64,000 nucleotides of DNA from Cenococcum geophilum (taxonomy: Eukaryota). Positions 12,585 to 64,000 of this stretch are shown here, in pieces; positions within the stretch are counted from its first letter, which is position 1, and every line of letters starts with the position of its first letter. Location: assembly GCA_050273025.1 (NCBI GenBank), contig CP158635.1:7378001-7442000 (forward strand), given 5' to 3'. The notes under the pieces were generated by a model. That model saw only the letters and a program-made list of their open reading frames with translations, was not told the DNA's origin and searched no databases. The position numbers and the translations under genes are program-made.

Positions 12585-12804
12585 ATATTAACCTAAAGGC
12601 TAGCCTTATAGAGCCGTTATAAGACTTTATAAACGTACTCCTTATATTCTAGCTCGTTCTTAAAGTAGATTATAATATTATCTAAATAGGCCGTATAGAA
12701 GTTATTAAGGTAGTTAAAAAGTATATCGTTTATATACCGCTAATACGTAGCTAGTCCATTAGTTAGTCTAAAAGGGAGTACCTTATATTTATATATTCCG
12801 TAAT

Positions 12805-15800
12805 TGTCACAGAACGTGGGCAGTAGCTACAGAGCGTATGTATTTGAGGAGTCTACAAGACGTTACGCGATCGATCGTAAGGGTCGAGGGCGTAAGGAGG
12901 TGATATACCTACGCGTAGCTGACATAAGCTGTATATGAGGTGTACGCAAGAGCACGGGGCTCTCCTATAGAGGCCCCTGCGGTAGGGTTCCGTAACACTA
13001 CCCCCCCTCCTATAAAGGCGGAGCTCCGGTAACGCTATGGTTACTATATATATATAGAAGGGACACTTAAGGTATAGAGAAGAAGAAAAAAGGGGGGTAT
13101 CGCTAAAGGTTTAAAACAACATTATATAATAAGGCTTGGTATCTAAGAATCTAACCAATTAGATAACTTTAACTGCCGGTTGAAGTTCCTAGATATCTTA
13201 ACGATATTCTAGTCACGTAATTGCACTTTACCGCAATCTAACGGCAATATGGCGGCAATTTGCCCTTACGTAGTAATGTATAACGGTTTAGCTCTATAAG
13301 GGCTCCTATAGAGGATTAGGTATAAAATCTCTACTTAGGCCTAGTTTCTGTAGGTTTACGTAGTAAAAGTCGCTGATTAGATCCTTTGTATTTTTAAAGT
13401 CTTCCTATAGTTGCCATTCTGGCTAATCTATATCAAATCCTGTATATATAGCTCTGTAGTAGAGCCATTGTCCTCTGCCTTTGCTAAAGTATTTAGAGTT
13501 AATAATTCGTTTAATAGTCTACTCCTCGTAGTTCTTATCTTTGTTTTTGTCTTGGATTAGTACTAGTGGGGGTTTAGGCTATATCTGCCCTAGTAAGGGG
13601 TTAGGCTAATAGAGGTATAGTAGCTATAGGTAAAATATAGGCTATATCCTGCGGGTAGCTAGGGTAGGCGGAAGTTCTAGCTTATATGCGGCTCCCTTAT
13701 TAATAACTTATTTAATTAGATAGGGGCTGAGGTTCTTGTGATTAAGTGACTTTATAGGCCTCTACGTAGAGATATTGCGTGCATCTAGCTATACCCAGTC
13801 GCCAACACGTATCTCCAGTAGTGGCGTTCTATAATAGTTAGTAAAGTAGGCCTGCTTTGCTTAAGCCTAGGCCATTTCTCCCTTATAGTAGTTAAGTAGA
13901 TTTTTTATACAGTTTATATGCTAGTTAGTAAGTAGTATCTTAAGGCATTTTCTATATAGCAGTTTCTTATTAATAGGTTCTAGTAGCTCTATACCGGATT
14001 AGGGGTAATAACCCTTATTTACAAAGAATGGGGTAAGTCCTATAGTAGTTAAGATATAGTTATTTGCTGCGAATTTACCTAGTAGGAGGTAATCTACCTA
14101 GTTATCTTAACTATAGGCGACTACCTATCGTAGGTACGCTTTTATGCTGGCGTTAGCGTTTTCCGGTTACCCAGCAGTTTTATAATAAAAGGATATAGAT
14201 ATCTTAACGGAGATGCCAAGGCGTTAGCAGATTTATCTCTATACATTAGAGTTAAATTATATGCCTTAGTCGGACGTAATTAAGTTAGGTAACCTATATA
14301 GTCGGTAAACTTTGCGGAGGAAGGCGTTAGTAACATCGCTAACGGCTACGCCTTTAGTTAGGACGTAGTGGCGCTCTTTTATAAGTCGGTATATTATTAT
14401 AAGGATATTCTTATAGGTACGGCCGTGTCGTTTATAGGGTAGTAGGTTAATAACGAAATCTATGGCGATATCTACCCATCGTTATATAGGTATTGGTAGA
14501 GGGTGTAGTAGTCCTTAGTACTTTATATTAAAGGCCTTAGCGCGCTTATAACTATAGTAGGCGCCTATAAAGCGTTCAACTAAGTCTATTATTTTTGGCC
14601 AGAAGTAGTATCGGCTAAGAAGCTTATAGGTTCCTTTTCTACCTAGGTAGCCGCTTAATTAGAGGTTATAGGCCATTTGGATTAGTTGCTATTATAGATT
14701 TTCTAAGTTAGGGATAAATAGGCGACCTCTGTAATAGAGCCTATTCTCTTTTACTTTTAAGGCTGCTATATTAATCTGGCCTAAGCTTTAGAGGTTAATA
14801 GGCAGTATATAGGCGCTAGCGGTCTTTACGGTAATAAGTTAATATAGTAATAGGTTAACAGAGGTGTTATATACCGTAGTAATAAGCTTATTAATTTTAG
14901 GAGGTAACTTTAGTTCTATAGTATAAAGCTAAGGTATAGTTAGCTCTATTGTAGGTAGTATACCTAGGGCCAAATTTCGTGCTTTTAGGATTGTTTATTG
15001 TTAGAACTAATTATAGGGGTTATCTTTAAACTAAGGAAGGTCTTACAAGCGGCGTATTAGGCTATTAGGTTTAGTACCTTATACTCCTAATCTATATATA
15101 ATTTTAAAGTTAAAACTAGAAAGGAACTCATTCTAACGTGCTTAATGTCGGTTTAGCTACTTTGTGGTTATAAAGTACTTAAGGTTGCAATGGTCTGTAA
15201 GGACTTTAGTTAGCTAGTTAGGCTCTACTAAGGAAAGTTCTAGTTAGAATTCTTTAAACGCTCGTATGATTATAAGGAGTTCTTTATTATAAATCTTATA
15301 GTTACACTCTTATAGTGTAAGCTTAGACGAGTAGAATGCGACTAGGTAAAGGAGACCATTATTACCTATTTAGGAAAGGACGCCTGCGTTAATATAGTCT
15401 AAGAAGTCGGTTTCAAAATAGAGTTATTGTCCTAGTATAAAGTAAGCTAGAATAGGTGCTTTGGTAAAGGCATTTTTAAGGTCTTAAAACGCCTTCTTGT
15501 ATTTAGGCATCTAGGTAAAGCGTAGGTACGTTTTTCTTCCTTTTACAAAAAGGCCCTTCGTTTGCATTATTGCTATAAGTAGTGCTACTACGCCTAAGAA
15601 GTTATATATGAATTTCTAATAGAAGTTAGTAAAACTAAGAAAGGCTTATACGTCCTTAATATAGTTAGGGGCTTGCTATTTAGTAATTATACGTACCTTC
15701 TTAGGGTCTATATGGACACCCTTAGTAGTAACAATTAGTTTAAGGTATTTTACTTCTATAACTAAGAATTCGCATTTCTTTAAATCAATATAAAGTCCTG

Positions 15801-18800
15801 CGTCCCTAAGGCGCTATAGAACTTTTTAAACGTGTTTAGTATACTTAAAAGGGTTATCGCTATAAATAAGTATATTGTCTAGGTACGCAGAGCAGAAGTT
15901 ATTAAGGTAGTCCTATAAGGCGTTATTAATATAGCTTTAAAAGGTGCCTGGGCCGTTATATACGCCAAAAGGTATAATAGTATATTCAAATTGGCCGAAG
16001 CGCGATGCGAATGCAGTTTTCCATTTATCACCTTCCCGTATTTAGAGATAGTTAAAGGCGGCGATAATATCAAGCTTAGTATAGATTTTAGCTTGGCTAA
16101 GCCGCTTAAGGGTCTCCCGTATAAGCGGTACTGGGTATTAGTTTTTAATTATAATAGCGTTAAGTCCTCTATAGTTAATATAGAATTAAATACCTCCTTC
16201 TAGCTTCTTAGCGAGAAGAATAGGGGCGGCTGCTAGTAATATACTAGGATAAATAAACCCTTTATTAAGGTGCTCGTTAATATACTTTCTTATAACTAGA
16301 AGTTCGTCTTTTAATATTAGGTAGGGTCTCTTATAAGGTAGCGTTTTTCCTTATTTAATATTAATGGCATAGTTATTAGGTTAATGTAGGGGGAGTATAT
16401 TTACGCCCTTTTATAAGCATATGTTAATAAAGTCGTAGTACCTTTTAGGGAGGAGCTTACGGAGTTCTTTATTAGTAAGTCCTTTTTTAAGTTTTATAAA
16501 CTTCTTAAAGTCTAAAGGTAAAAGTCTATAGAGTTCCGCAGGGGCATCGTTTTCTAAAAAGTCAACTATATCTATCCTATTACTATAAAAGACGTAGTCC
16601 TATTCTTTATTAAGCTTATATAGTCGTAATCGGGAAGCTATAGCAATAGTCTAGCCTTTCCTACGTGCTATACAGTAGAAGGCCGCGGCACTTATGTAGT
16701 AGTAGTTAATCGTAGGTGGGATAATAAGGGGTTTCTTAGGTTAATATCCTGGTAAGTAAATAGAGGCGGCTAGGCCATATCCTAGGCAAGTCTCTTTATA
16801 GTATTTAGAGTTAAAGGTTGCTTCTTTCTTTCCTAGTTAATGGCAGGGTTGTGTTATTTAAGCTAGCTTATTTTAAGGATAATAGGGTAGTTAGCAAGTG
16901 GTATAATATAGGCCTAGAGCTCTTCCTGGTGCCCGTTTATATCTAAGTAGAGTTATACTACATGGGTAATCTTTTATGCGGTATAACTACCGTTAGCGAG
17001 TTATAGGGCGCGGGCTTTAGTAAGGGGTAAGGTAGGTAGGTTATAAGTACGCACAAGTTAGGTATCTATAAATTAGTTAGTAGCTCCGTAGTTAATTATA
17101 GAACGGCTTTTATATTATTTTTTAGTAGTAGTTCCTATTATAGGTAAAACTATCTATTTCTGTCTATTTATCTTTACTAGGTTATTTATTAAGCAGGCCA
17201 ATATATAGATCTCTCTATCATTAGGGCGTCCTAACCTACGACTTAAGGCTAGGACTTGGCGTTTTCCGCTTCCGTATCCAATTCTACTACTATTACTACA
17301 TCTTCGTCTTATATAGTAGTGGCATATAGTAACATATTTAGTGTTTGGGGCATTAGGTTAGGTATTAGGCGGCAAGTACTAAACCTAGCCATTAAGTAGT
17401 TTAGATTATTGCAATAATAGCCTTTTTAACGGTATCTATAGCAGCGTCCTAGTTTCCGGAGTAGCTCACGTTCTCTGTCTAGGAGTTTTTATGGAAAGGT
17501 TAGTATAAAGAGGTTAATATTGGCTCTAGTGGTACTTAAGGTAGTAGGCGTTGGTGGCTTAGTATATATAGGTTTAATAGGCCCGGAGGGCTTCTATAAA
17601 GAGGTCTTTAAGCAAAGGTTAGCGGTAGTAATTTAATTTAGTCGTTGTTTAATCTTCTATAAGGCTGCTACCATCTTATAAACATTGTTATAGTTATAGC
17701 TAACGGCTGCGTAACTAAGGCAATAAGTAACTTTTTTAAGGAGATCCTTCTAGTCTTCCGTATTATCTCGGGCGAGGGCTCTAGTATATTCCTAGAATTT
17801 AATATAGAACTCGTTAAATAATTTGGTAGGGCTTATCTTTAGGGCACGTAGTTTAGCTCGGTTAGTGGCTAGTAGGTTATAATTACGGTATATTAAGTTA
17901 AGATTATTAAGGACTTCTTAGTAAAACTACTACTTCTAGGGGCTACTAGTCTCCTATTAGGCAAAGAATCTGTTAAATAGTATACCCTTTATTCGCCTAA
18001 TAATGTAGCTAATCTTAGTGTCTTCCGTAGGAAAAAGGCAGGTACTCTAAGTTAGTTTCTTACGGATTTACATCTTCTAGTGGCTGTATTCCTTACGGTT
18101 TCCCTAAAAGACTAGGGGATTAGGGTAGCGTATATTAGACCCTATAGTGGCAGTTTAGGTCCGATTATTATGGCTTTTATTATCGCTGCTTTAGTAGGGG
18201 TTCCTATTAGGTAAAGCTGCTTAGCGCTAACCCTTTATTAAGCGTTAAGTAGGTGAAGTTGCTAGGGGCGTAAAGACTTAGGTGGCGTTATATATAATAG
18301 AGAGGTGTCTAGCGTTATTACAAATATACTTATTAAGCTAAGATTATAGGTATTTAATTATGCCTTCTTTTTTAGTAACCGTAGCAATTAGTACAATCTC
18401 CTTCTTCTTTAACTATTAGACGTCGCGTTTAGACATACAGAGGTCGTCTTTGGTTTCTTAACGTGTGTTATTAGTGAGCGCCTTACGAGCTTATAGGTCT
18501 TGGATAATATTATAATTTTAGGCAGTACGCATCTTAGCTCGTGTAAGCTTTAGGTAGTAGTTCTATAGAAGGCGGTAGTATTTATTAGGGTTTTGTGCTA
18601 CTATTTTTATAAACGTCTTGGCGTCTCGTATCTTAATTTTAATAGGTAGTAGCCCTTCCGTTTGCTTATCCGTAGTTATATAGTTAATAAAAAATAAGAC
18701 ATTATTAGTGTCCATCTCCTTAGGGGTTAAGGCTAGGGCTAATAAATCGAATTCTCCTAGGATTAATTGGCGTTGTAGGTTAAGTATAGGTATTAGATTG

Positions 18801-19167
18801 TTCTTTAGGTTTAATATAGTAGCTAGTAAGGAATATTATCTTACTATTATGGGTTCCTTAGAAGTATAAAGTAAGGTAATTTATAGACACGCTGCTTTTG
18901 GCAGCGCCTGCAGTATTGCAAAGACGTAGAATTAGTCGTAGGCTGAGCGTCAGTGGTAAAAAGGCGCAACGTAATGTCACGGAACGTAGGCAGTAGCTAC
19001 AGAGCGTATGTATTTAAGGAGTCTACAAGACGTTACGCGATCGATCGTAAGGGTCAAGGGCGTAAGGAGGTAATATACCTACGCGTAGCTGACATAAGCT
19101 GTACGCGAGGTATACGCAAGAGCACGGGGCTCTCCTATGGAGGCCCCTGCGGTGGGGTTCCATAACA
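12805..19167 (-). mobile_element. Gypsy chromovirus family B, copy 1, full length, nested in the RT region of A
   Basis: 193-bp LTRs at 12805-12997 and 18975-19167; TSD GTAAT; PPT (CTACCCCCCCTCC on +); degenerate RT, RNase H, integrase and chromodomain on the minus strand; collinear with 57608-63951. Confidence 0.95.
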
Positions 19168-22100
19168 GTAATAGGTCTAAAATATAATAAGATCCTTAGA
19201 CCTAAGGTCTATTCTAATTTAGTAAAAGGCCTAGTGGATATTAAGCTTTATAAAGACCTTAGCTCTACTTATTTAGGCTAGAGTCTTATTAAGTAAAGGA
19301 AGTAGGTAGTAGTCCTTGCGGGTTATATTATTTAGCTTATAGTAGTTAATATAGAAGTAAAGTCCTCTATTTAGCTTTTTAATAAAGAGAATAGGCGAGG
19401 TAAAAGGGGCTTAGCTAGGCTTAATAAAGCCCTTATTTAGGTTATTAATAAGATACTACTTTATAGCCTATAATTTGGTAATAAACTGCTTATAGAGGGG
19501 GCTAAAGCCAAGGGTGTTTTTCTTACCCTGCTTAATCTTAATCTTATAGTTATATAGTTAGTAAGGTAAAAGTATATTAGATACTACTTTAAAGAATATA
19601 TCCTTAAATTTCTAGTATTAATAGGGCAGCTTTTATTTTACTAGTTCCTTATCTATAAGCTCGCTTTTTTATCTACTAAGCTTATTTTTTTTATATTATT
19701 TAATTAAATTTATACAAGCTAGTTATAAAGACGATAGTATTAGGCTGAACTAAGTTCCGGTAGAATCCTACGGCACTAATATAGTAGATATTAACTGGTG
19801 GGAGGTCCGCTAGTTTCCTTATAGCCGTTTTCCGGACCGTATTTTATAGTCTAGGGTTTATAGTCTTTTTTAGATCCTATTTTATCTTCCGTAGGTTATC
19901 TCTCTAATTTATTAGTTTAGTATAATATCTAATATCCCTTACTATTCTTTATGGCTGTATAGGGCCTAAGCTCTCTATAGGGGGCTTTTTTAAGTTACTA
20001 TTAACTTTCTAGGTCTTTAATACGGGTGGCGTAATATAGGTAGTCTAAGGGCAACGTAGTATATAGATTCGTTGCGAATTAAGCTATATATCTTTCTTAA
20101 AGGCCTAGTCCCTACGTATAGTATCGGCCTAGTAAAGAGTATTAATCTAGGGCCGTATAAGGTTTTTTATTGTAATACTAATTTCTTTTATAAAGGAAGG
20201 GGTTAGGGGTAGGGTTTTAGGCTAGATAAGCCGCCTACTCTATAAATTAAGCTGTAAGCCTAAATAGGCTAGCTATTTTCTTTTTAAAATTATATTATAG
20301 CTTCCTAGGTCCGTAATAAGGAAAGGGATATTATACTACCTTCGTCCGTCTACACGGAGGTAAATCTATAAGATAGTTATAATAGGTGGTCCTATCTACC
20401 GGTTATACCCGCGAATAGGAATTAATTTAGGCAGTTCTTTAATAGGTGCATTAAAAAAGTTAGCCAGCTTTATAGTGTACTAGGTATCTATTAAGGTAAA
20501 GATATTTACTTTAGAGTTAGCTAAAGCAGAGGTTAAAACTTAATATTTATTGCGGAATAAAGTATAAGGAATAGTGCAGCTTCTTCTACTAACTAGCCAA
20601 CCTAGATTAATATCTAATATATTAATCCCTTTTAACCCTAGAAAAGAGTCTTCCTCTAAGGTTCCTTTTTTTCTAACTCTATACTATCCTCCTAGATTAA
20701 TAGAACATTGTCTACTTTTATATTTATTCGGCAATCCTTTATACGGTAGCCTTTCTAACTATAGAAGAAGTAAGCTCCTTAATTACTAAGGGCCTATATA
20801 TAGAGGTTACTATATATAGGCTGAGTATTTGCTAGACCTATAGTAGAACTAGCCGTATAGCTAGCTACTAAATTAGCGGCGGGCTATACGGGTAGTGCGG
20901 TAGGGGTTACTAATTGTGCTAGGGTATTGCGGGCCGTTCTTATATTACTTATAGTCTAATTTAAAGGGTTTCTAGCCTTATACCGTTTAGCGCGTACCTT
21001 AATTTAGTAGAGGCCTTAGTTAATAGCTAAGCACTAATCCATAAGTTCCTTTAGCGTCTATATAGTAGTAAAAACTAGCAATATAGCTCGCTGTAGGTCT
21101 AGGGTAAGCTTATTAAATAGATCTAGCATTAAATCTTCCTAAGGAATTTAAGCCTAGCCGGCTAGGTATAGAAAGCGGGTCTAAAAGGCTAAGAAGGTCT
21201 CTATCGTTTTTATATTTAGGCTTTTATAATTAAGTTGGGCGTTTTATACTTTAAAGGGGTCCTTATAAATAGAAGATAGGTAAACAATTATCTCTTCTTT
21301 AAAGAGAAAGGGATCTACTAAGTCCTATGCGTATTACGGACGTAGGTACGTCTATACGTCCCTACCGGTACGGCCGAAGACGTAGGCTATTTTGGCCTAA
21401 GTAGTAGGGAAGTAGTCCGTATTAACTTTAAGCTTATCCTATAGTTAAAGCTTCTAATTATTAAATATAGGGTTAGTTCTATTTATAAGTAATAGAGGGT
21501 CCACAACCTTTACAGACCGCGACGATGCTAATGCTATACGTTAGGCTAGGGCCTTAAGGACTATAGTAAGTCTCTAGGTGTCTAATAACTCTTCGCTAGG
21601 TATAGGGGGTTCTCTAGCTTTAAGCAGCTCTTAAAGTTATTTAATTTTAGCATTGGCTACTATAAGCTCTCCCTAGGAGTTCGAGTTAGTTACTATTTTA
21701 CTATTAAAGGTATTTAAGGGTCCTGCGGCTACTTTACCGGCTACTATATTTCTTGGCATAGTGGTACAGTTATTATAGTAACTTTTAGTAGAATTTTGTA
21801 GGGGTTCTGGTCTATGTTTATTCTATAGGTCTTATTATTCTTTTCTATTCTTTAAGTTCTAGTAATAGTTTTTAGGTCTACTTCTGTGTTCTGTTTTTAT
21901 TTATAGTCTATAAATATTTTTTAGTTCCTTCTTAGGAAGAAGAGTAGATAAGCTTTGGATAATATTAGTAACTTAGTTAATTAAGGCACGAGTATAGCAA
22001 GAGGGACGCGCAGCCTATATAATTGGTAGTTTATAAACAAAAATCTAAAGCTAGAGAAAAGAAAGGAGACAGAGGGTGGCGCCGCTTAACATTATATATA

Positions 22101-34161: not shown

Positions 34162-34877
34162 GGACAACGATAGCCATACACCCCCTAAATGATACGCGTA
34201 CACCCCCCAATTGATACGCATACACCCCCTACCTCATTTGGTTTAGATGCATCCTCATTAAGTTAGATGCTCCCTCATTAAGTTAGAGTATCACGTGCGT
34301 TTGACTTGTTTGCGTCTGCATCACGAAAATCAAAGTATGCGCCATGTAGGTTTTATAACTGCAATATCACGATCATGTCTTAATTTTAGTTATAGTATAA
34401 GTAGTAGAGTCAAAATTGGAACGCGCCAAAGTCGATTAATTGGATTGCGCGGTGCTTTATAAGGCGTCGCGTAAACTAATTTGCGTGCTGCTACCTCTGC
34501 TGCCTCCGCGCCCACACCCGCGCCCACGCATGCGCCTGTTAGGACCTAAAATAACAACTCTACTTCGCATCTAAGAGCTTGCAATTATAGAGCGTCGCGG
34601 CAGTTAGCTAATTAACTCTATAACCTGCTTTATAATTACTAATCGCGTTAACAGATCTACTCGTAAAGAGCCTTTAGCATTTGAACGAAATACTAGGGCT
34701 TATACTTTGGTTTTCGCGATCAGGCGCAAACAAGTCAAACGCACGTGATACTCTAACTTAATGAGGGAGTATCTAACTTAATGAGGATGCATCTAAACCA
34801 AATGAGGTAGGGGGTGTATGCGTATCAATTGGGGGGTGTACGCGTATCATTTAGGGGGTGTATGGCTATCGTTGTCC
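34162..34877. mobile_element. 716-bp non-autonomous foldback element with ~155-bp TIRs and 8-bp TSD (Mutator-like; superfamily uncertain)
   Basis: GGACAACGATAGCC...GGCTATCGTTGTCC with near-perfect long inverted arms; TSD TAATAAAA on both sides. Confidence 0.88.
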
Positions 34878-35437
34878 TAATAAAATCCTTAGAGAAGTAA
34901 TTAATAAAAAGGTTATTAAGATAACTTTTCTTAATCTTATTATTATACAAAATCTCTCTTTCCGAATTGTTTAAAGTTAAGAGTTTTAGACATTTTATTA
35001 TGCTCTTAATTAATAAGCTGTTAAAATACTTCCTACTTCTTATATAACCCTTGTTTAAAAGGTAAGAGCCAAGTTTATCCTTAATAAGGATATATATAAC
35101 GGGTTATTTAATCCGTAATTACGTAAATCTATCTTAGTATAGATATCTGGATATCTCTAAGTAATAACCTTTATCTTATAGTCTGCGGCCATTTTATTAA
35201 TATAGAAGAATGTATTCGCAATATCCTACTTACTCTACCTTAGGTAGTAGGCTATAGCAAAGAGCATTAATGGCTTACTCTTCTTTTAGTTTTATAAGAT
35301 TTTAGTATTATATAACAAATTAGAGCAATTATTAAAGACAATTCTAGTATAAACGATACGCTCTATTATACAATTAGCACCTACCTTTTAGAGTATAAGA
35401 AGATTTGTAACCGACTACCAAGGCTCGCATTACCTTA

Positions 35438-50844: not shown

Positions 50845-52267
50845 TATAGATCCTCACACGACATCGTTTGTCAATTATATACAGTCACCTCGTACATCGT
50901 ACCTTGACAGTCCGCACGTACTGTGACATGTAATGGGTTATACCTAGATATACTACTTAGCAGCTAGCCTGCCTACTTATATTAAATACCTATATACAAA
51001 AAAAATTCGATATCGGATTTTATTCGGATATTTTATCGGATTTTACGATATCGTAATCGTTTTAAAACGTATAATTTTTGGCCACACTGATTGCTGGACT
51101 CGCGGGCGGTTAGCATTCTGCCAGGAACACCAACTTCGTTAGCGTGCGACCTTTGTAAATAGATAAAACTTTATACTTTAAATACTAACACTTATGGTAC
51201 GAAACAGGTCGTTAAACGATGAGGACTTTGTTCTACCGACTCAATATCCCAAATTACCAAAGGGAAGAAGAAATTAAGACCTCCTGACCTAAACTTATCG
51301 ATTTTAGGTATTGTTCGCACGGGCCACCATCTTAAACACACTGACGGTGCAAGGGATAACTTTACGCGTATCTATCTCTTGCGCTTCTAAGCCTTAATTA
51401 CCTTATTAGCAGCCTTTTTCTTAAGCTTCTTTAGCTTCTCTTATGCATCTTACAACACTAAGAGTTTAGAATTCTCTATAGTATTGCGTCTATCTTGTAT
51501 ATAAAGTATATCTTCCGTTTAAAGCGACTGCTAAGCGTCCTTCTGTATATCCTTATGCTTCTATACTATTACAATAGTACGTAATAAGTCTCTATATATA
51601 GCCTTAGCTGCAACCGCAATTACTAGGCTACTATATATAAACTTTTTATACAGAATATACTACGTATCCTTATCCTCCTCCTAATCTAGCAGATTAGCTA
51701 GTACTATAAGCGTATATATATAAACTAGTATCTCTAGAGAGTAATTATCTATAAAACCCGTATCTATAGACATTGTTGCTTATAGTAATAGCATTTAAAT
51801 TTGGCTAAGCATAGTGGTAGAATTAAAAGGAATTAGCACTGATTTCGCCTAAGCGCTTAAAACTATACTTCTCTTAAATATATTAAGGCGAACTTTGTAT
51901 AGAGCTTATAGAAACTCTATCTTATTAAAATTTATATAGCTATTTTAAAAGGCCCTAGTTGTAGCTTGCCTGTACTAGTACTTATATAGCTATAAAAACA
52001 CTACAATATTAAGAGGCTAATAGATATGCGTTATATACAATATTATAGCAAATAAGATAATTAGGTAATTATTGTAAAACTATATAAATTGCCTAGTAAA
52101 ATAGCTAGTATAGCCACCTAGGATAAGGAGCTAATTTTTACTAATTTAGCACTTCTTAGACCACTTTAATAGTAGCCAATCGTTAATATATGCAGTATTA
52201 CTTAATGCTAGTAAGTAATTGCCTAGCAGCTTATATATAGTTTTACCTACTAGGATAATAAATAAAG

Positions 52268-52479
52268 GCCATCAGGAATTTTTTTTGGCCACGTTGTTGC
52301 AAGCGAAAATCCAATTTTGGCAATTTGCGGCGATTTGCAGCAATTTGCTACAAACACATAGGCTACCTATGCACGCGCCTGCCCTATCTATGTGTTTATA
52401 GCAAATTGCCAAAATTGCGACTTACGCAGACCCCGATTTTCGCTTGCAACAACGTGCCCAAATTTTTTTTCCTGATGGC
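52268..52479. mobile_element. 212-bp foldback/MITE-like palindrome
   Basis: GCCATCAGGAA...ACGTTGTTGCAAGCGAAAATC arms inverted at both ends, plus an inner inverted pair (GCAATTTGCTACAAACACATAG); TSD unclear (TAAAG/TAGAG possible). Confidence 0.7.
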
Positions 52480-52480
52480 T

Positions 52481-53243
52481 AGAGGCTCTGCACGAGGCTC
52501 TGCACGAGGCTCCATACAAAGCTCCGCACGAGGCTTTACATAAAGCTCTGCACGAAGCTCTGCACGAAGCTCTACACAAAGCTCTGCACGAAGCTCTACA
52601 CGAAGCTCTACACGAAGCTCTGCACGAAGCTCTACACAAAGCTCTGCACGAAGCTCTACACGAAGCTCTACACGAAGCTCTACACGAAGCTCTACACGAA
52701 GCTCTACACGAAGCTCTACACGAAGCTCTACACGAAGCTCTACACGAAGCTCTACACGAAGCTCTACACGAAGCTCTACACGAAGCTCTACACGAAGCTC
52801 TACACGAAGCTCTACACGAAGCTCTACACGAAGCTCTACACGAAGCTCTACACGAAGCTCTACACGAAGCTCTACACGAAGCTTTGCACGATGCTCTACA
52901 CGAAGCTCTGCGTACAGAGACTCTACACGAAGCTCTACACGAAGCTCTGCACGAAGCTTTACACGAAGCTTTGCACGAGGCTCTACACGAGGCTCTACAT
53001 AAAGCTCTGCATATAGAGGCTCTGCACGAGGCTCTGCACGAGGCTCTACACGAAGCTCTACGTACAGAAGCTCTGCACGAAGCTCTACACGAAGCTCTGC
53101 ACAAAGCTCTATATGAAGCTCTACACGAAGCTCTGCACAAAGCTCTACGAAGCTCTACACGAAGCTCTACATATAGAGGCTCTGCACGAGGCTCTGCGCG
53201 AAGCTCTGCGTACGGAGGCTCTACACGAAGCTCTACACAAAGC
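52481..53243. repeat. 12-bp minisatellite (GAAGCTCT[A/G]CAC)n, about 60 units
   Basis: Direct tandem repeat visible in the sequence; it produces the EALH and CRAS repeat ORFs. Confidence 0.97.
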
Positions 53244-53410
53244 CTTTGTGTGTGCGCGCGACACACTACTATCGGGTCCCCGCTATATTCCCGATAGCCT
53301 CTACACGTGCCTCTGCCAAGTATACCCCCTATATACACCTAGGTAGCCACCTCATTTTTTACCCTTCCTTACATCCTCCCTACCTAGGAAGACACCAGAA
53401 CGACAGCCAG

Positions 53411-53875: not shown

Positions 53876-53989
53876 AATTTAGAGCCTCCGCGAGAGGCTT
53901 CCCCCTTAACGCCTAAAGTAGATAGCTCTACATTTTATATAGTTATAATATAAATATATTTAAAAGTATATTATAGAAATCTATAGGAA

Positions 53990-56625
53990 TGTCACGGGAC
54001 GGGGGCAGTGGCTACAAAGCGTATGTATTCGAGGAGTCTACAAGACGTTGCGCGATCGATCGTAAGGGTCGAGGGCGTAAGGAGGTGATATACCTACGCG
54101 TAGCTGACATAAGCTATACGCGAGGTGTACGCGAGAGCACGGGGCTCTCCTATAGAGGCCCCTGCGGTGGGGTTCCGTAACACTACCCCCCCTCTTATAG
54201 AGGCGGAGCTCTGGCGACGCTGTGGTTACTATATATATATAAAGGGGACACTTAAGGTATAGAAAAAAAGAAAAGGGGGGTTTACTAAAGGCTTAAAATA
54301 ATATTATATAATAGGGCTTAGCATTTAAGAATCCGACTAATTAGATAACTTTAACCGCCGGTTAAAGTTCCTAGACATCTTAATAATATTCTAGTTACGT
54401 AATCGCACTTTGCCGTAATCTAATAGCAATTTAACGGTAATTTGCCCTTACGTAGTAATGTATAATAGTTTAACTCTATAAGGGCTCCTATAGAGGATTA
54501 GGTATAAAGTCTCTACTTAGGCCTAGTTTTTATAGGTTCGCGTAATAAAAGTTGCTAATTAAATCCTTTGCATTTTTAAAGTCTTCCTATAGTTGCTATT
54601 CTGGCTAATTTATATTAAATCCTGTGTATATAGCTCTACAGTAGAGCTATCGTCCTTTGCCTTTACTAAAGTATTTAGAGTTAATAATTTATTTAACGGT
54701 CTACTCCTTATAGTTTTTATCTTCGTTTTTATCTTAGATTAATACTAGTAGGGGTTTAGGCTATATCTACCTTAGTAAGGGGTTAGGCTAATAGAGCTAT
54801 AGTAGCTATAGGTAAAATATAGGTTATATTCCATAGGTGGCTAGGGTAGGTAAGAGTTCTAGCTTATATACGGCTCCCCTATTAATAACTTATTTAATTA
54901 AATAGGGGCTAAGGTTCTTATAATTAAGTAACTTTATAGGCCTCTATATAGAGATATTGCGTATATTTAGCTATACCTAGTCGCTAACACATATCTCTGG
55001 TAGTGGCGTTTTATAATAGTTAGCGAAGTAGGCCTACTTTACTTAAGCCTAGGCCATTTCTTCCTTGTAGTAGTTAAGTAGATTTTTTATATAGTTTATA
55101 TACTAGTTAGTAAGTAATATCTTAAGGCGTTTTCTATATAGTAGTTTCTTATTAATAGGTTCTAGTAGCTCTATACTAGATTAGGGGTAATAACCCTTAT
55201 TCGTAAAGAACGGGGTAAGTCCTATAGTAGTTAAGATATAGTTATTCGCTGCAAATTTACCTAGTAGAAGGTAATCTACCTATTTATTTTAACTATAAGC
55301 GACTACCTATTATAGATATGCTTTTATACTAGTATTAGCGTTTTCTAGTTACCTAGTAGTTTTATAGTAAAAGGATATAGATATCTTAATAGAGATGCTA
55401 AGGCGTTAGCAGATTTGTCTCTATATATTAGAGTTAAATTATATGCCTTAGTTGGACGTAATTAAGTTAGGTAACCTATGTAGTCAGTAGACTTTATAAA
55501 GAAAGGCGTTAGTAAAATTACTAACGGCTACGCCTTTAGTTAGGACGTAGTGGCGCTCTTTTATAAGTTAGTATATTATTATAAGGACGTTCTTATCCCT
55601 TAACCCGCCGGCGTCTATCTAGTAGCTGGTCCGTGCGGAACACCAGAATTAAAAGTACGCGTGTAGTCACGGAGCCTTGATCCTATTAATCTGATTGGCT
55701 AAATCTTATCGATAATAGATGGACGTAACTCGGCGGGTTAAGGGATAGGTACAGCCGTATTATTTATAGGGTGGTAGGTTAATAACAAAATCTATAGTAA
55801 TATCTACCTATCGTTATATAGGTACTAGTAGAGGGTATAGTAGTCTTTAGTACTTTATATTAAAGGCTTTAGCGCGCTTATAACTATAGCAGGCGCCTAT
55901 AAAGCGTTTAACTAAGTCTATTATTTTTAGCTAGAAGTAGTATTGGCTAAGAAACTTGTAGGTTCCTTCTCTACCTAAATGGCCGCTTAATTAGAGGTTG
56001 TAGGCTATTTAGATTTTCTAAGTTAGGGATAAATAGGCGGCCTTTATAATAGAGCCTGTTCTCTTTTACTTTTAAAGCTACTATATTAATCTAGCCTAAG
56101 CTTTAAAGGTTAGTAGGTAGCGTATAGGCGCTAGCGGTCTTTACGGTAATAAGTTAATATAGTAATAGGTTAACAGAGACGTTATATGCCATAGTAATAA
56201 GCTTATTAATTTTAGGAGGTAACTCTAGTTCTATAGTATAAAGCTAGGGTATAGTTAGCTCTATTATAGGTAGTATACCTAGAGCTAAATTTTATACTTT
56301 TAGGATTGTCTATTATTAGAACTAATTATAGGGGTTATTTTTAGATTAAAGAAGGTCTTACAAGCGGCGTGTTAGGCTATTAGGTTTAGTACCTTATACT
56401 TCTAGTTTATATATAATTTTAAAGTTAAAACTAAAAAAGAACTTATTCTAATGTGCTTAGCGTTAGTTTAGCTACTTTATAGTTATAAAGTACTTAAGGT
56501 TACAATAGTCTGTAAGAACTTTAGTTAGCTAGTTAGGCTCTATTAAGGAGAGTTTTAGTTAAAATTCTTTAAACGCTTATATAATTATAAGGAGTTTTTT
56601 ATTATAGATTTTATAGTTATACTCT
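53990..56625 (-). mobile_element. Gypsy family B copy 2 (3' LTR 53990-54182, chromodomain, integrase, part of RNase H), interrupted by a LINE
   Basis: Collinear with 12805-15315 and breaks at the T-rich LINE tail; the remainder presumably lies beyond the window. Confidence 0.92.
55597..55744. mobile_element. 148-bp MITE with TIR CCCTTAACCCGCCG and AT duplication
   Basis: Absent from the paralogous B copies, which read TTCTTATAGGTAC at ~14408-14420 and ~59208-59220; here the sequence is TTCTTAT[CCC...GGG]ATAGGTAC. Confidence 0.93.
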
Positions 56626-59600
56626 TTTATTTTTATTTATTTTTATTTTTTTATATCTATTATATTATACTACGTACAATACTGCGCATGCAGCCTTGGG
56701 CTATGGCGCTATAGTTCTATATACATAAATCCTTTCTAGGCAGCTTAATATGTACTAGTAGCTATATCCTAGTAGTTTATAAACCCCTAAATTAGGAGTT
56801 TATAGTTTCCTAGTAAAATACTAAGATACTACAACTACTAGGGAATAAGAAAATGGTAAGAAAAACTATAAGAAATCCTAACCCCTGTCCCTGTCCATTT
56901 GTAATTTATTTCTGTCCTTTTGCTCTCTAATATCTTTTTAAGAGCCTAGTAGGAGTTGCCTCCTTCTAGAATCCTATCTGTTTTATTCTTCTATAGAATC
57001 TTCTTTACGTACTAGTTTAGCAGCTTTAAAAGTCTTACAATCTTTACTATTAGTAAAGTGTTTTTCTTTACAATTAATGCAAAGAGGGGTGGTATGCTGG
57101 TAAGGCTTGCCTATTATTATACAGGTAGAACAGGAATAGTCTTTAGATAAATATACAGCTGCACAGTATCTGCAGGCCCTAGTAGAGCACCTGTCTCCTA
57201 TATGGCCAAATTTTTAGCAGCTCGTACACTGCGTAGTAGGAGAGACTTCGAGGTATTTTACTACCTTAGTAGCTGTACCTACAATTGATATCTCTTTTTG
57301 CTTAAGGATTTCTTGTCTTTTTTCCTCGTTCTCTATAGTAAAAACTATAGAGCCAAATCTAGTTTATGGGTTGTGTCTTTTTACACTAGATAAGATCCAT
57401 CTAGGTAGTCCCTGTATCCTTATAGGATTTAAAGTCTTAATTTCTTCCTTTAGAAGCTTAGAGCCTCCTTCTCCTAGGAACGGTATAGTAGGGACCCTAT
57501 AGGCTATAATTTGAACCTATAGTTCTAGTTTTTGTTCTCTTTAAAAGGTAAAGCAATTATGCCAGATATCCTTATATTTGACTAAGAAATCTATATTATA
57601 CTCTTCTTGTTACGGGACGGGGGCAGTGGCTACAAGACGTATGTATTTAAGGAGTCTACAAGACGTTGCGCGATCGATCGTAAGGGTCGAGGGCGTAAGG
57701 AGGTGATATACCTACGCGTAGCTGACATAAGCTGTACGCGAGGTGTACGTAAGAGCACGGGGCTCTCCTATAGAGGCCCCTGCGGTGGGGTTCCGTAATA
57801 CTACCCCCCCTCCTATAGAGGCGGAGCTCCGGCGACGCTGTAGTTACTATATATATATAAAAGGGACACTTAGGGTATAGAAAAGAAGAAAGAGGGGTAT
57901 CACTAAAGGCTTAAAACAACGTTATATAATAAGGCTTGGCATCTAAGAATCTAACTAATTAGACAACTTTAACTACCGGTTAAAGTTCCTGGATATCTTA
58001 ACGATATTCCGGTCACGTAATTGCACTTTACCGCAATCTAACGGCAATCTAATGGCAATTTACCCCTACGTGGTAATATATAACGGTTTAACTTTATAAG
58101 GGCTCCTATAGAGGATTAGGTATAAAATCTCTGCTTAGGCCTAGTTTCTGTGGGTTCGCGTAATAAAAGTCGCTAATTAGATCCTTTGTATTTTTAAAGT
58201 CTTCCTATAGTTGCCATTCTGGCTAATTTATATCGAATCCTGTGTATATAGCTCTGTAGTAGAGCCGTCGTCCTCTACCTTTGCCAAAGTATTTAGAGTT
58301 AATAATTCGTTTAATAGTCTACTCCTTATAGTTCTTGTCTTCGTTCTTATCTCGGATTAGTACTAGTAGGGGTTTAGGCTATGTCTGCCCCGGTAAGGGG
58401 TTAGGCTAGTAAAGGTATAGTAGCTATGGGTGAAATACAGGCTATATCCCGCGGGTGGCTAGGGTAGGTAGGAGCTCTAGCTTATATATGGCTCCCCTAT
58501 TAATAACTTATTTAATTAGGTAGGGGCTAAGGTTCTTATAATTAAGTGACTTTATAGGCCTCTGCGTAGAGATATTATGTATATCTAGCTATACCTAGTT
58601 GCTAACACGCATCTCCGGTGGTGGCGTTCTATAACAGTTAGTAAAGTAGGCCTGCTTTACTTAAGCCTAGGCCATTTCTCTCTTGCAGTAGTTAAGTAGA
58701 TTTTTTATATAATCTGCATGCTAGTTAGCAAGTAGTATCTTAAGGCGTTTTCTATATAGCAGTTTCTTATTAATAGGTTCTAGTGGTTCTATACCGGATT
58801 AGGGGTAATATCCCTTGTTTGCAAAGAATGGGGTTAGTCCTATAGTAGTTAAGACGTAATTATTCGCTGCGAATTTACCTAGTAAGAGGTAATCTACCTA
58901 GTTATTTTAACTATAGGCGACTACCTATTGTAGGTACGCTTTTATGCTAGCATTAGCGTTTTCTAGTTGCCCAGTAGTTTTATAATAGAAGGATGTAGAT
59001 ATCTTAACGGAGATGCTAAGGCGTTGGTAGATTCGTCTCTATATATTAGAGCTAAACTATATGCTTTAATTGGACGTAATTAAGTTAGGTAACCTATGTA
59101 ATCGGTAGATTTCGCAAAGGAAGGCGTTAGTAATATCGCTGACGGCTACACCTTTGGTTGGGACGTAGTGGCGCTCTTTTATAAGTCGGCATATTATTAT
59201 AAGGATGTTCTTATAGGTACGGCCATGTCGCTTATAGGGTAGTAGGTTAATAACGAAATCTATAGCGATATCTGCCTATTGTTATATAGGTACTAGTAGA
59301 GGGTGTAGTAGTCCTTAGTACTTTGTATTAAAGGCCTTAGCGCGCTTATAACCGTAGTAGGCGCCTATAAAGCGTTTAACTAAGTCTATTATTTTAGGCT
59401 AGAAGTAGTATTAGCTAAGAAGCTTATAGGTTCCTCCTTTGCCTAGGTAGCCGCTTAATTGGAGGTCATAGGCTATTTAGATTAGTTGCCGTTGTAGATT
59501 TTCTAAATTAGGGATAAATAGACGGCCTCTATAATAGAGCCTGTTCTCTTTTACTTTTAAGGCTGTTATATTAATCTAGCCTAAGCTTTAGAGTTTAGTT

Positions 59601-62600
59601 GGTAGTGTATAGGCGCTAGCGGTCTTTGCGGTAATAAGTTAATATAGTAATAGGTTAACAGAGGTGTTATATGCTGTGGTAATAAGCTTATTAATTTTAG
59701 GAGGTAATTCTAGTTCTGTGGTATAGAGCTGAGGTATAGTTAGCTCTATTATAGGTAGCATACCTAGGGCCAAATTCCGTGCTTTTAGGATTATCTATTA
59801 TTAGAACTGGTTATAGGGGTTATCTTTAGACTAAGGAAGGTCTTATAAGCGGCGTGTTAGGCTATTAGGCTTAGTACCTTATACTCCTAGCCTATATATG
59901 ATTTTGAAATTAAAACTAGAGAGGAACTCGTTCCAGCGTACTTAGCGTTAGTTTAGCTATTTTATAGTTATAAAGTACTTAAGGTTGCGATAATCCGTAA
60001 GGACTTTAGTTAGCTAGTTAGATTCTGCTAAGGAGAGTTTTAGTCAGAATTCCTTAAACGCTTATATAATTGTAAGAAGTTCCTTATTATAGATCTTGTA
60101 GTTACATTCTTATGGTGTAAGCTTAGACGAGTAGAATATAACTAGGTAGAGGAAACCGTTATTACCTATTTAGGAGAGGACGCCTGCGTTAATGTGGTCT
60201 AAGAAGTTAGTCTTAAGATAGAGTTATTGTCCTAGTATAAAGTGAGCTAGAATAGGTACTTTGGTAAAAGCATCTTTAAGGTCTTAGAACGCCTTTTTAT
60301 ATTTAAGTATTTAGATAAAACGTAGATATGTTTTTTTTTGTTACGGAAAGGTCCTTTGTTCGCATTATTGCTATAAGTGGTGCTATAACACCTAAGAAGT
60401 TATATATGAATTTTTAATAGAAGTTGGCGAAACTAAGGAAAGCTTATATATCTTTAATATAGTTAGGGGTTTGCTATTTAGTAATTATGCGTACCTTCTT
60501 AGGGTCTATACGGACACCCTTAATAGTAACGATTAGTTTAAGGTATTTTACTTCTGTGATTAAGAATTTGCACTTCTTTAAATTAATATAAAGTCCTATA
60601 TCCCTAAGGCGCTGTAGGACCTTTTAAACGTGCTTAGTATACTTAGAAGGGTTATTGCTATAAATAAGTATATTATCCAGGTACGCAGAGCAGAAGTTAT
60701 TAAGGTAGTCCCGTAAGGCGTTATTAATATAGCTTTAGAAGCTGCTTAGGCCGTTATATACGCCAAAGGGTATAATAGTATATTTAAATTGGCTAAAGCG
60801 TAATGCGAATGCGGTTTTCCATTTGTTACCTTCTTATATTTAGAGGCGGTTAAAGGCGGTAATAATATTAAGCTTAGTATAGATTTTGGCTTAACTAAGC
60901 CGCTTAAGAGTCTTATGTATAAGCGGTACGGGGTATCGGTTCTTAATTATAATAGCGTTAAGTCCTTTATAGTTAACGTAGAATCGGATACCTCCTCCTA
61001 GCTTTTTAGTAAGGAGGATAGGGGTGGCTGCTAGGGATATACTGGGGCAAATAAACCCTTTATTAAGGTGCTCGTTGATATACTTTTTAATAACTAAAAG
61101 TTTGTCTTTTAATATTAGGTAGGGTCTCTTATAGGGTAGCGTTTTTCCTTATTTAATATTAATGGTATAGTTATTAGGTTAATATGGGGGGAGTATATCT
61201 ACGCTCTTTTGTGAGCATATGTTAATAAAGTTATAGTACCTCTTAGGGAGGAGCTTACGGAGTTCCTTGTTAGTAAGTCCTTTTTTAAGCTTTATAAACT
61301 TCTTAAAGTCTAAAGGTAAAAGTCCGTAGAGTTCTATAGGGGCATCGTTTTTTAGAAGGTTGACTATATCTATCCTATTACTATAGAGGACGTAGTCTTG
61401 TTTTTTATTAAGCTTATATAGTTATAATTGGGAGGCTGCGGTAACGGTCTAGCCTTTCTTATATGCTATACGGTAGAAGGCCGCGGTACTTATATAGTGG
61501 CAGTTAGTTATAGGTAGGGTAATAAGGGGTTCCTTGGGTTAGTATTCTAGGGAGTAGATAGAGGCGGCTAGGCTATATCCTAGGCAGGTCTCTCTATAAT
61601 ATTTAGAGTTAAAGGTTACTTCTCTCTTTTTCTAGTTAATGGTGGGGTTGTGTTATTCGAGCTAGTTTATTCTAAGGATAATAGGGTAGTTAGTAAGTGG
61701 TATAATATAGGCCTAAAGTTCTTCCTGGTGCCTATTTATATTTAGGTAGAGTTATACTATATAGGTAATCTTCTATATGGTATAACTACCGTTAGTAAGT
61801 TATAGGGCGCGGGCTTTGGTAAGGGGTAAGGTAGGTAGGTTATAAGTGCGCACGAATTAGGTATTTATAAATTTATTAGTAGCTCCGTAATTAATTATAG
61901 AACGGCTTTTATATTGTTTTTTAGCAGTAGTTCCTATTATAGGTAAAACTATTTATTTCCGTCTATTTATCTTTACTAAGTTATTTATTAAGTAGGCCGA
62001 TATATAGATCCCCTTATTATTAGGGCGTCCTAACCTACGACTTAGGGCTAGGACTTAGCGTTTTCCGTTTCTATATCCGACTCTACTGCTATTACTGCGT
62101 CTTTGTCTTATATAGTAGTGGTATATAGCGACGTATTTAGTGTTTGAGGTACTAGGTTAGGTATTAGGCGGTAGCTACTAAACCTAGCTATTAGGCAGTT
62201 TAGGCTATAGCTATAACAGCCTTCTTAACAATATCTATAGCAACGCTTTAGCTTTTAAAGTAGCTCGCGTTCTCCATCTAGTAGCTTCTATGGGAAGGTT
62301 AGTATAGAAAGGTTAATATTAGGACTAGTAGTGTTGCTTAAGGTAGTAGGCGTTAGTAGTTTAATAGGTCTAGAGGGCTTCTATAGGGAGGTCTTTAGGT
62401 AAAGGTTTATAGTAGCGATCTAATTTAGTCGTCGTTTAATCTTCTATATGGCTGCTACTATATTATAAACATTATTATAGTTATAGCTGGCGGCTGCGTA
62501 ACTAAGGCAATAAGTGACTTTTTTAAGGAGATCTTTTTAGTCTTTAGTATCGTCTTAGGTGAGGGCTCTAGTGTATTCCTGAAATTTAACATAGAACTTA

Positions 62601-64000
62601 TCAAATAATTTAGTAGGGCTTATCTTTAGAGTATATAGTTTAGCTTAGTTAGTGGCCAGTAGGTCGTAGTCGCGGTATATTAGGTTAAGATTGTTAAGGA
62701 CTTCTTAATAGGACTGCCACTTTTAGGGGCTATTGGTCTCCTATTAGGCGAAGAGTCTATTAAATGGTGTACCCTTTATTTGCCTAATAATATAGCCAAT
62801 CTTAGTGTCTTCCGTAGGAAAAAGGCAGGCGCTCTAAGTTAGTTTTTCGCGGATTTGTATCTTCTAATGGCTATATTCTTTGCGGTCTCCCTAGAAAACT
62901 AGGGGATTAGGGTAATGTGTATTAGACCCTATAATAGCAGCTTAGGTTTAGTTATTATAGCTTTTATCGTCGCTTTAGTAGGGGTTCCTATTAGGTAAGA
63001 CTGCTTAGCGCTAACCCTCTATTAAGCGTTAAGTAGGTGAAGTTGCTGGGGGCGTAGAGACTTAAGTAGCGTTATATACAGTAGAGAGGTATCTAGCGTT
63101 ATTACGAATATGCTTATTAAGCTAAGATTATAGGTATTTAATTATACCTTCTCTTTTAGTAACCGTAGCAATAAGTACAATCTTAGCCTTCTTTAACTAT
63201 TAGACGTCGCGTTTAGACACACGGAGGTTATCTTCGGTTTCTTAACGCGTGTTATTAGTAAGCGCCTCACGAGCTTATAGGTCTTAGATAATATCGCAAT
63301 CTTAGGTAGTACGCATCTCGGCTTATATAAGCTTTAGGTAGTAGTTCTATAGAAGGCGGTAGTATTTATTAGGTTCTTATGCTACCATTTTTATAAACGT
63401 CTTAGCGTCTTATATTTTAATTTTAATAGGTAGTAGTTCTTCCGCTTATTTATCTATAGTTATATAGTTAATAAAAGATAAGATATTATTAGTGTCTATC
63501 TCCTTAGGGGTTAAGGCTAGGGCTGATAAATCGAATTCTCCTGGGATTGATTGGCGTTGTAGGTTAAGTATAGGTATTGGATTGTTCTTTGGGTTTAATA
63601 TAGTAGCTAATAAGGAATATTGTCTTACTATTATAGGTTCCTTAGAAGTATAAAATAAGGTAACTTATAGGCACGCTGCTTCTGGCAGCGCCTATAGTAT
63701 TACAAAGATATAGAATTGGTCGTAGGCTGGGTGTTAGTGGTAAAAAGGCGCAACGTAATGTTATGGAACGGGGGCAGTGGCTATAAGACGTATGTATTTG
63801 AGGAGTCTACAAGACGTTGCGCGATCGATCGTAAGGGTCGAGGGCGTAAGGAGGTGATATACCTACGCGTAGCTGACATAAGCTATACGCGAGGTGTACG
63901 CGAGAGCACGGGGCTCTCCTATAGAGGCCCCTGCGGTGGGGTTCCGTAACACTTCTATAGTTGTAAGGAGAATATTTTGTTTTCCTTTAGTTCTAGCTAT
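56625..64000 (-). mobile_element. Tad1-like non-LTR retroelement, ORF1 (gag-like) only, with A-rich tail; pieces 56625-57607 and 63957-64000
   Basis: Minus strand reads PRWIL...GSIVFTI...QCTSC*KFGHIGDRC..RACRYCAAVY...LCINCKEKH....KDC (three zinc-knuckle-like motifs); (AAAAT)n-like tail at 56625-56652. Confidence 0.8.
57608..63951 (-). mobile_element. Gypsy family B copy 3, full length, nested in LINE ORF1
   Basis: 193-bp LTRs at 57608-57800 and 63759-63951; perfect TSD CTTCT; PPT; collinear with copy 1. Confidence 0.96.

Follow-up and report, generated by a model that had tools for sequence, protein, structure and literature searches.

A 64,000-nucleotide stretch of Cenococcum geophilum DNA (GenBank assembly GCA_050273025.1, contig CP158635.1, positions 7,378,001 to 7,442,000, forward strand; hereafter the window) carries a 148-bp miniature inverted-repeat transposable element (MITE) that lies between two copies of the dinucleotide AT. 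According to the best explanation of our results, to which we assign a probability of about 0.8, it is non-autonomous and belongs to a fungal clade of the piggyBac superfamily that inserts into TATA with a gain of 2 bp, by the partly inferred steps described below. The features of the window on which the argument is based are as follows.

55597..55744, + strand: MITE, 148 bp (the + strand is the transposase direction of the parent element)
55597..55610, + strand: left terminal inverted repeat (TIR), 14 bp, starting with CCCTT, exact match
55731..55744, − strand: right TIR, 14 bp, exact match
55595..55596, no strand: left AT of the duplication; the T at 55594 before it is the outer base of the TATA target
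55745..55746, no strand: right AT of the duplication, followed by the A at 55747
14408..14420, + strand: paralogous empty site 1, with a single AT at 14413-14414
59208..59220, + strand: paralogous empty site 2, with a single AT at 59213-59214
53988..56629, − strand: host, a truncated Ty3/Gypsy (Tf2-like) long terminal repeat (LTR) retrotransposon copy mutated by repeat-induced point mutation (RIP), identified by paralogy; LTR at 53988-54185
12799..19170, − strand: full-length paralogous Ty3/Gypsy copy with empty site 1
57607..63953, − strand: full-length paralogous Ty3/Gypsy copy with empty site 2

The filled site reads TTCTT-AT-[CCCTTAACCCGCCG...CGGCGGGTTAAGGG]-AT-AGGTAC. The 14-bp TIR pattern has only two matches in the window, even when 3 mismatches are allowed. 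The 13-mer of the empty site has exact matches at 14408 and 59208; taken as a bare pattern at 2 mismatches, it is not above chance (4 found, 5.3 expected). Both empty sites are true paralogues of the filled site and are 86–89% identical to it along 1.6 kb of left flank and 0.9 kb of right flank. The left and right paralogue alignments overlap by exactly 2 bases, AT, at both empty sites, and the filled site exceeds the empty sites by 150 bp, that is, 148 + 2. The original prediction had described the filled site beside two uninterrupted paralogous sites and had excluded TA and TTAA duplications; both statements agree with the net gain of 2 bp and the AT overlap. It had placed the MITE at 55590..55752. 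The element is there, but 7–8 flanking bases had been included on each side.

A 6.4-kb LTR retrotransposon is present in three copies, and the MITE sits within one of them. In copy 1, the Ty3/Gypsy domains RVT_1, RT_RNaseH, Integrase_H2C2 and SH3_Tf2-1 are encoded on the minus strand, and according to the paralogous coordinate the MITE probably lies within the integrase region of its host. The host is heavily RIP-mutated, with a TpA/ApT ratio of about 1.8 (gene-like DNA, 0.8). The window MITE differs from its nearest copy, L002, at 5 positions, all of which are C>T or G>A at CpA/TpG. Thus, the MITE was hit by RIP-type mutation after diverging from L002. A tblastn search of the window detected no remnant of a transposase. 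The DNA folding of the window MITE (z −5.9) was rejected as a signal, since it reflects only the TIRs and subterminal repeats.

The genome to which the window belongs (G000) comprises 178 Mb in 7 contigs. A BLAST search of it gave 40 scored matches to the MITE among 376 candidates, and the element is therefore no one-off, an outcome by which the original prediction could have failed. Identical copies are present at unrelated loci, in groups of 4, 3, 2 and 2, and indicate recent movement. At loci picked on element similarity alone, the left end follows TAT and the right end precedes AT in 30/30 cases, and the right end precedes ATA in 29/30. A census of the end pattern CCCTTAACCCGCYR in G000 gave 447 matches. 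The base adjoining CCC is T in 439 of them; 437 follow AT, 428 of these TAT. The remainder consists of 9 matches after VAT, 8 after a base other than T, and 2 after CT, and both CT-preceded matches are unlike the family inside. An exact 2-bp direct duplication of AT was found in 46/46 elements, and a duplication of 1, 3, 4, 5 or 6 bp in 0/46; 16 of the 46 had been chosen with a pattern that already required AT. The 4-bp duplications that would have contradicted the earlier claim were thus looked for and are absent from these elements. At position −4, the 92 ends of the 46 elements have C 52, T 25, G 10 and A 5 times, which indicates that the preferred site is Y-TATA-R. This target is palindromic. 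Its central AT is essentially invariant, and the outer T/A are kept at about 98%.

The same rule is observed in sister families, in which the TIR changes after CCC[T/A]T and the TAT/ATA flanks stay. All 26 left ends found among 29 long copies of this genome follow TAT, as do 43 of the 44 found among 52 metagenome loci. The right ends are followed by ATA in 23/26 long copies of this genome and in 28/32 metagenome cases; the others are probably ends mis-called in a fixed search window. Positions 5-8 of the TIR are variable, with 14 octamers in the 44 metagenome left ends. As the sister TIRs vary inside yet keep their flanks, the inner TTAA of the TIR is no hidden duplication. We regard the AT duplication rule as highly probable. 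A search for the clade gave 36 pattern matches in prokaryote collections and 17 in viral ones, none of which was confirmed.

Empty paralogues were compared on a larger scale. With 82 filled sites as queries against all collected loci, 29 had a paralogue covering both flanks, and 27 distinct comparisons were left after removal of 2 duplicates (19 from this genome and 8 from metagenomes). The modal flank overlap is 2 bp in 25 of the 27 distinct sites and 1 bp in the other 2. An empty paralogue left by seamless excision would look no different from a site that an element had never entered. In another strain, a contig (run X9) bridges the position of a family MITE at locus L226 and shows a single AT inside TATA (1 of 4 runs). 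Paralogous MITE contigs crowded this comparison between strains, and X9 is the one bridge with readable letters. A contig from a second run begins exactly at the right-hand AT of the young MITE of L226 and skips the second MITE; the joint itself is not among the matches listed. Three family MITEs of different subfamilies lie at L226 (4313-5439) within 1.2 kb of otherwise gene-like DNA, and this cluster is a local hot spot. The first of them is without its right TIR end, and the second and third are seemingly absent from at least one other strain. At L047, near 1500, two family elements meet at one AT, the first with its right end and the second with its left end (target GATA). This may be an insertion directly beside an older relative; the locus fits more than one model and was not used singly.

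The original prediction held that the mobilising enzyme could not be identified. Long copies with the same ends are present in the genome, however, and they encode a piggyBac-superfamily transposase. At least 4 end pairs lie 2.2–2.3 kb apart (100 of the 158 exact end matches are listed). Two of these copies, L032 (527-2782) and L033 (509-2764), are 2256 bp each and differ at 1 base (99.96% identity), and they have unrelated flanks with TAT/ATA and open transposase frames. Neither has a RIP signature, in a genome in which almost every other copy is interrupted by many stops. L032 and L033 are candidates for a recently active element, as judged from their sequences. The flanks of the young autonomous copy L032 (200-526 and 2783-3100) are a tandem repeat of units of about 35 bp, and each unit is an empty site with a 2-bp overlap.

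In L032, the two long open reading frames (ORFs) represent two exons of a single PF13843 (DDE_Tnp_1_7) protein, with E values of 4.8e-43 for exon 1 (148 bits, cut-off 22.4) and 4.1e-7 for exon 2; no other Pfam family matches. The exons are separated by a predicted 86-nt GT-AG intron, which contains a branch-site motif and whose removal would join them in frame to give 642 codons and a stop. The best sequence matches in the PDB are Trichoplusia ni piggyBac (6x67; E 3e-19) and piggyBat (9c0f; E 6e-6). The structure model of exon 1, with a predicted local distance difference test score (pLDDT) of 72.9, was compared using Foldseek and matches piggyBac (E 1.6e-16) and piggyBat (E 1e-13). Its PDB matches at E≤0.001 number 3, and all are piggyBac or piggyBat chains. 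In the DDD triad, the first D aligns to D268 and the third to D447. The second D, in a WLDNLF motif, is invariant in 16/16 aligned relatives and probably corresponds to D346 according to the span of the Pfam alignment. Y439, N440 and D447 are retained. Exon 2 shows a CxxC ... CxxC ... C ... C/H pattern, likewise present in relatives; zf-Tnp_2 gave no match at E≤0.001 and a weak one (0.063) in one distant relative. At least 102 transposase candidates were scored in the genome, and they are mostly riddled with stops.

Bases 1-70 of the window MITE are 93% and 91% identical to the left ends of L193 and L194/L034, respectively, and bases 72-148 are 90% identical to their right ends. At the sequence level, this shows the window MITE to be an internal-deletion derivative of a 2.23-kb piggyBac-superfamily element, with both ends from one subfamily. 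It is short, non-coding, bounded by TIRs and multicopy, and its ends are common to an autonomous element, as expected of a MITE. Its 14-bp TIRs, which begin with CCCTT, fall within the range of piggyBac TIRs (12–19 bp, beginning with C, commonly CCCTT). The element is thus piggyBac by enzyme, fold and ends; it does not show the TTAA duplication and is a variant, not a canonical piggyBac. The atypical target rule of the original prediction therefore stands, and its unknown transposon type becomes a piggyBac with a changed target rule.

The filled site alone fits both a 2-bp AT duplication and a blunt insertion of TCCC...GGGA, as had been pointed out earlier. Junctions between inverted copies bear on the choice between the two. 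At one locus (L062), two identical inverted copies are separated by 4 bases, which read alone fits more than one model. We expected GGG-NTAT-CCC from a 4-nt hairpin loop copied unopened, GGG-AT-CCC from a 2-nt loop, and GGG-ATAT-CCC from neighbouring insertions. Junctions with spacers of 0–8 bases were searched for. The search first gave 2 places and, when widened, 10 (control 4), 3 of them with long arms. The other 7 of the 10 have arms of 5–6 nt and were rejected as chance, and a metagenome junction with a 10-nt arm (L136) was dropped. With one found elsewhere, the inverted MITE dimers are the following.

C3:14320952 of G000 (L237/L062): inverted MITE dimer
C2:17632654 (L236): inverted MITE dimer, with an extra palindromic 4 nt at one outer end
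C5:13767788 (L244): inverted MITE dimer
C1 near 20398027 (L235): inverted MITE dimer

In all four dimers, both arms derive from one MITE and are joined at the same end; they are 148, 308, 117–128 and 334 bp long with 0, 7, 1 and 8 mismatches. On one strand, the spacers read TTAT, CTAT, GTAT and TTAT, that is, N-T-A-T in 4/4 cases, with AT or ATAT in 0/4. In each dimer, one arm stops at GGG and is followed by C, G or T, not by A. These results indicate that the transferred end is at GGG and that AT is derived from the target; the dimers therefore favour AT duplication. The spacer equals the locus's own four flank bases on the strand of an in-place hairpin in 3/4 dimers. The outer right end of the L236 dimer reads GGG-TTAT-ATAA. 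The TTAT is missing from 2 empty paralogues and is the reverse complement of the adjoining flank, a form expected of a hairpin that was opened on the wrong side and then rejoined. The outer ends of the L244 dimer, compared with the paralogue L110, show the usual 2-bp gain. A scan for palindromic additions detected only that of L236, under a loose definition of ends (38 of the 298 'ends' have no AT, mostly internal chance matches). The junction sequences suggest that the dimers are fossils of hairpin intermediates.

An earlier test had used the 8 ends with a base other than T before CCC, 4 of which read TAC|CCC. Their interpretation as insertions into TACA was rejected: the T>C background is 6 over two TIR sites, and TACA is absent from the paralogues of L058 and L065, which have TATA or TGTA at this position.

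In the mechanism that we propose, the transposase would be supplied in trans. Excision would probably proceed by a piggyBac-type hairpin 4 nt outside the end, with the loop N-T-A-T. Such excision would leave 5'-ATAN overhangs on the donor flanks; with pairing limited to AT, fill-in would be needed to restore TATA. At integration, the GGG-3'OH of both ends would very probably be joined to T^ATA on both strands, with a 2-nt stagger and duplication of AT. The hairpin (NTAT) and the target (ATAN after the end) would no longer be one tetranucleotide. Five junctions at four loci, all of them genomic fossils, put the chances slightly in favour of excision through a 4-nt hairpin that is no longer coupled to the 2-nt stagger of integration. 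The RIP-mutated DNA of the window contains TATA at about 7 times the density of the window's gene-like DNA (29–30 against 4 per kb). RIP might multiply TATA in dead repeats and thereby draw insertions there. We lean a little towards a wider statement, that this is a widespread fungal piggyBac branch with a 4-nt hairpin, a 2-nt stagger into TATA, a rebuilt omega loop and a target made by RIP.

The omega loop is where the target step may have changed. Published papers are cited here for passages of their text. In T. ni piggyBac, R275, Y283 and K290 contact the hairpin and the target and hold TTAA (PMC7351741). In an ungapped alignment, these three residues are replaced by M/N/P in the L032 protein, and piggyBat, which targets TTAA, retains R/Y/K. 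Among the relatives that are matched by a loop expression (209 of 264, proteins only), Y283 occurs in 0, R275 in 1 and K290 in 12. The pLDDT of the omega loop is <50 in the structure model. The replaced residues appear in line with a changed target step.

Several observations weigh against the proposed explanation. The rule was seen in this genome, in close strains and in metagenome contigs (44–92% protein identity). The overlap is 1 at L055 and L065, where the flanks are diverged or homopolymeric; at one of these sites, 14 further paralogues with an adjoining homopolymer fit a 2-bp gain and one substitution. Many empty paralogues read TACA, TGTA, CACA and so on, not TATA. RIP converts CA/TG to TA, and these sequences are presumably un-RIPed precursors of TATA. 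The fourth dimer was found outside the junction search, and the spacer of L237 mismatches the local flank on the predicted strand. The choice of AT duplication over blunt insertion draws on the four dimers and the one addition. Finally, the spacing of the T. ni active sites is said to mandate a 4-bp offset (PMC7351741), and a 2-nt stagger would thus need an altered geometry.

The strongest alternative differs from the proposed mechanism in the excision step only. It assumes AT duplication in the same piggyBac clade with a shrunken geometry, in which the hairpin loop and the stagger are both 2 nt (AT) and excision is seamless; the dimers would come, for example, from neighbouring insertions and mutation. 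The hairpin and the target share a conformation in T. ni piggyBac (PMC7351741), and a coupled change is therefore the simple expectation. Moreover, no more than 4 dimers are known, and an aberrant product is not necessarily a guide to the normal reaction. However, neither AT nor ATAT is observed as a spacer, so each of the four dimers would need a substitution at one and the same position, when T>C inside the TIR amounts to only about 3 per site per 430 ends and the arms differ by no more than the mismatches given above. The palindromic 4-nt addition of L236 is also left unexplained. We consider this alternative possible but rather doubtful.

A blunt insertion of TCCC...GGGA between TA and TA by the same transposase, without any duplication, is improbable. 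It yields an identical filled site and accounts for the T that adjoins CCC in nearly all census matches, and the Spy elements demonstrate that DDE elements are able to insert without duplication (PMC4122938). The dimers do not fit it, with one arm in 4/4 reading GGG and then C, G or T, and piggyBac TIRs start with a conserved C, most commonly as CCCTT (PMC5381638, PMC10813416). Spy also differs in its AAA^TTT target and PHIS-type enzyme, in contrast to TATA and PF13843 here.

It is very improbable that another enzyme moves the MITE and that the likeness to piggyBac is superficial. The candidates would be ISL2EU, whose duplications are 2 bp and typically AT (PMC4122938), or Tc1/mariner, which duplicates TA; mosquito ATon MITEs also have an AT target, and in the source passages no enzyme is known for them (PMC3422177). 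However, the transposase-bearing copies with the same ends have TAT/ATA flanks and encode PF13843 only, and the MITE is 90–93% identical to their ends. ISL2EU has a PIF/Harbinger-type DDE enzyme (DDE_Tnp_4-type) with THAP and a YqaJ ORF, and it is described without a need for TATA. ATon elements have the ends ATAGGCC and likewise no TATA need in their description. Tc1/mariner has DDE_1/DDE_3 enzymes, and its TA duplication fails at the empty sites, which keep TATA. The last alternative takes the inner CCCGCCG as the true ends of an ordinary TTAA piggyBac that had entered the TTAA of a pre-existing CCC-TTAA-GGG palindrome. It would explain why the TIR reads CCC-TTAA-CCC with TTAA adjoining the inner CCC at both ends, but it is refuted by empty sites without the palindrome, and sister families have TTAG, TTGC, TTCG and ATGC inside with the outer CCC and TAT/ATA kept; its likelihood is negligible.

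Other repeats of the window are recorded here. Positions 33613-33626 and 51342-51355 form a matching pair of 14-bp sister-family TIRs (CCCTTGCACCGTCA) with TAT/ATA flanks, 17.7 kb apart. The pair spans the entire RIP-mutated nest, in which no transposase remnant was detected, and it may be one small element enlarged by nested insertions. Three structures lie outside the CCCTT family: an 82-bp imperfect palindrome (33689-33770), a 178-bp inverted pair bounding about 720 bp (34161-34878) and a 179-bp palindromic element (52284-52462). A tandem array of short, GC-richer units (83–85% alike) at 52480-53246 lies directly to the left of the host retrotransposon, and units resembling it flank L046 and L003.

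The element shares with canonical piggyBac (6x67/6x68) and piggyBat (9c0f) a PF13843 DDD transposase and its fold, TIRs of about 14 bp with CCCTT and a strict palindromic AT-rich target; it may also have a Cys-rich C-terminus and probably a 4-nt excision hairpin in common with them. It differs from them in having TATA with 2-bp AT instead of TTAA with 4 bp, M/N/P instead of R275/Y283/K290, and one intron, and the hairpin and the target are apparently different 4-mers, unlike in piggyBac. Ti_tr1 of Tuber indicum (PMC3864998) is likewise an ascomycete element with a PF13843 transposase, no TTAA and a 2-bp duplication. According to its description, however, the duplication is TA, the TIRs are 52 bp, the element is single-copy and its classification was left unclear. 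PiggyMac of Paramecium (PMC3408717) is loosely similar, with 4-nt overhangs, 2 nt of which pair, and processing that leaves one dinucleotide. It is a host excisase without integration, and its TA is central in the overhang, whereas the AT here is terminal.

Repbase contains the groups piggyBacA and piggyBacX, which are piggyBac lineages with a non-TTAA target and a 4-bp duplication; a full-text literature search found no paper on them. TTAA is described as the hallmark of the family, and rare single-copy exceptions, including ATAG, TTAT, ATAT and ATAA, are ascribed to mutation (PMC5381638). The same four 4-mers flank AT-type elements, perhaps by coincidence. The passages of an animal survey give other 4-bp exceptions only (PMC10813416), and those of a fungal survey of 5,965 piggyBac transposase copies give no duplication data (PMC5751038). 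The passages of PMC2836289, PMC12730594, PMC8092012 and bioRxiv 2022.12.06.519325 contain nothing of relevance. In the full-text literature searched, outside of which lie most subscription papers and Repbase, the passages contain no description of a 2-bp AT piggyBac; no search was aimed at hairpin-derived dimers. Within that scope, the 2-bp AT/TATA rule is a new natural piggyBac variant; a non-TTAA truffle element ('TA') had been noted in 2013.

Cryo-electron microscopy explains TTAA by a structural echo of the hairpin and the target (PMC7351741). An AT lineage with a replaced omega loop and an apparently unchanged 4-nt hairpin is a direct test of that model. In practice, piggyBac is defined by its TTAA duplication, a feature that the lineage contradicts. 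Pipelines that demand TTAA or drop elements without a duplication (PMC10813416) would miss or misdraw such elements. The two open-framed copies of 99.96% identity are a candidate tool with TATA specificity. If the explanation is true, both the target site and the cut geometry of this natural piggyBac are new, and its target is manufactured by the RIP defence of its host.

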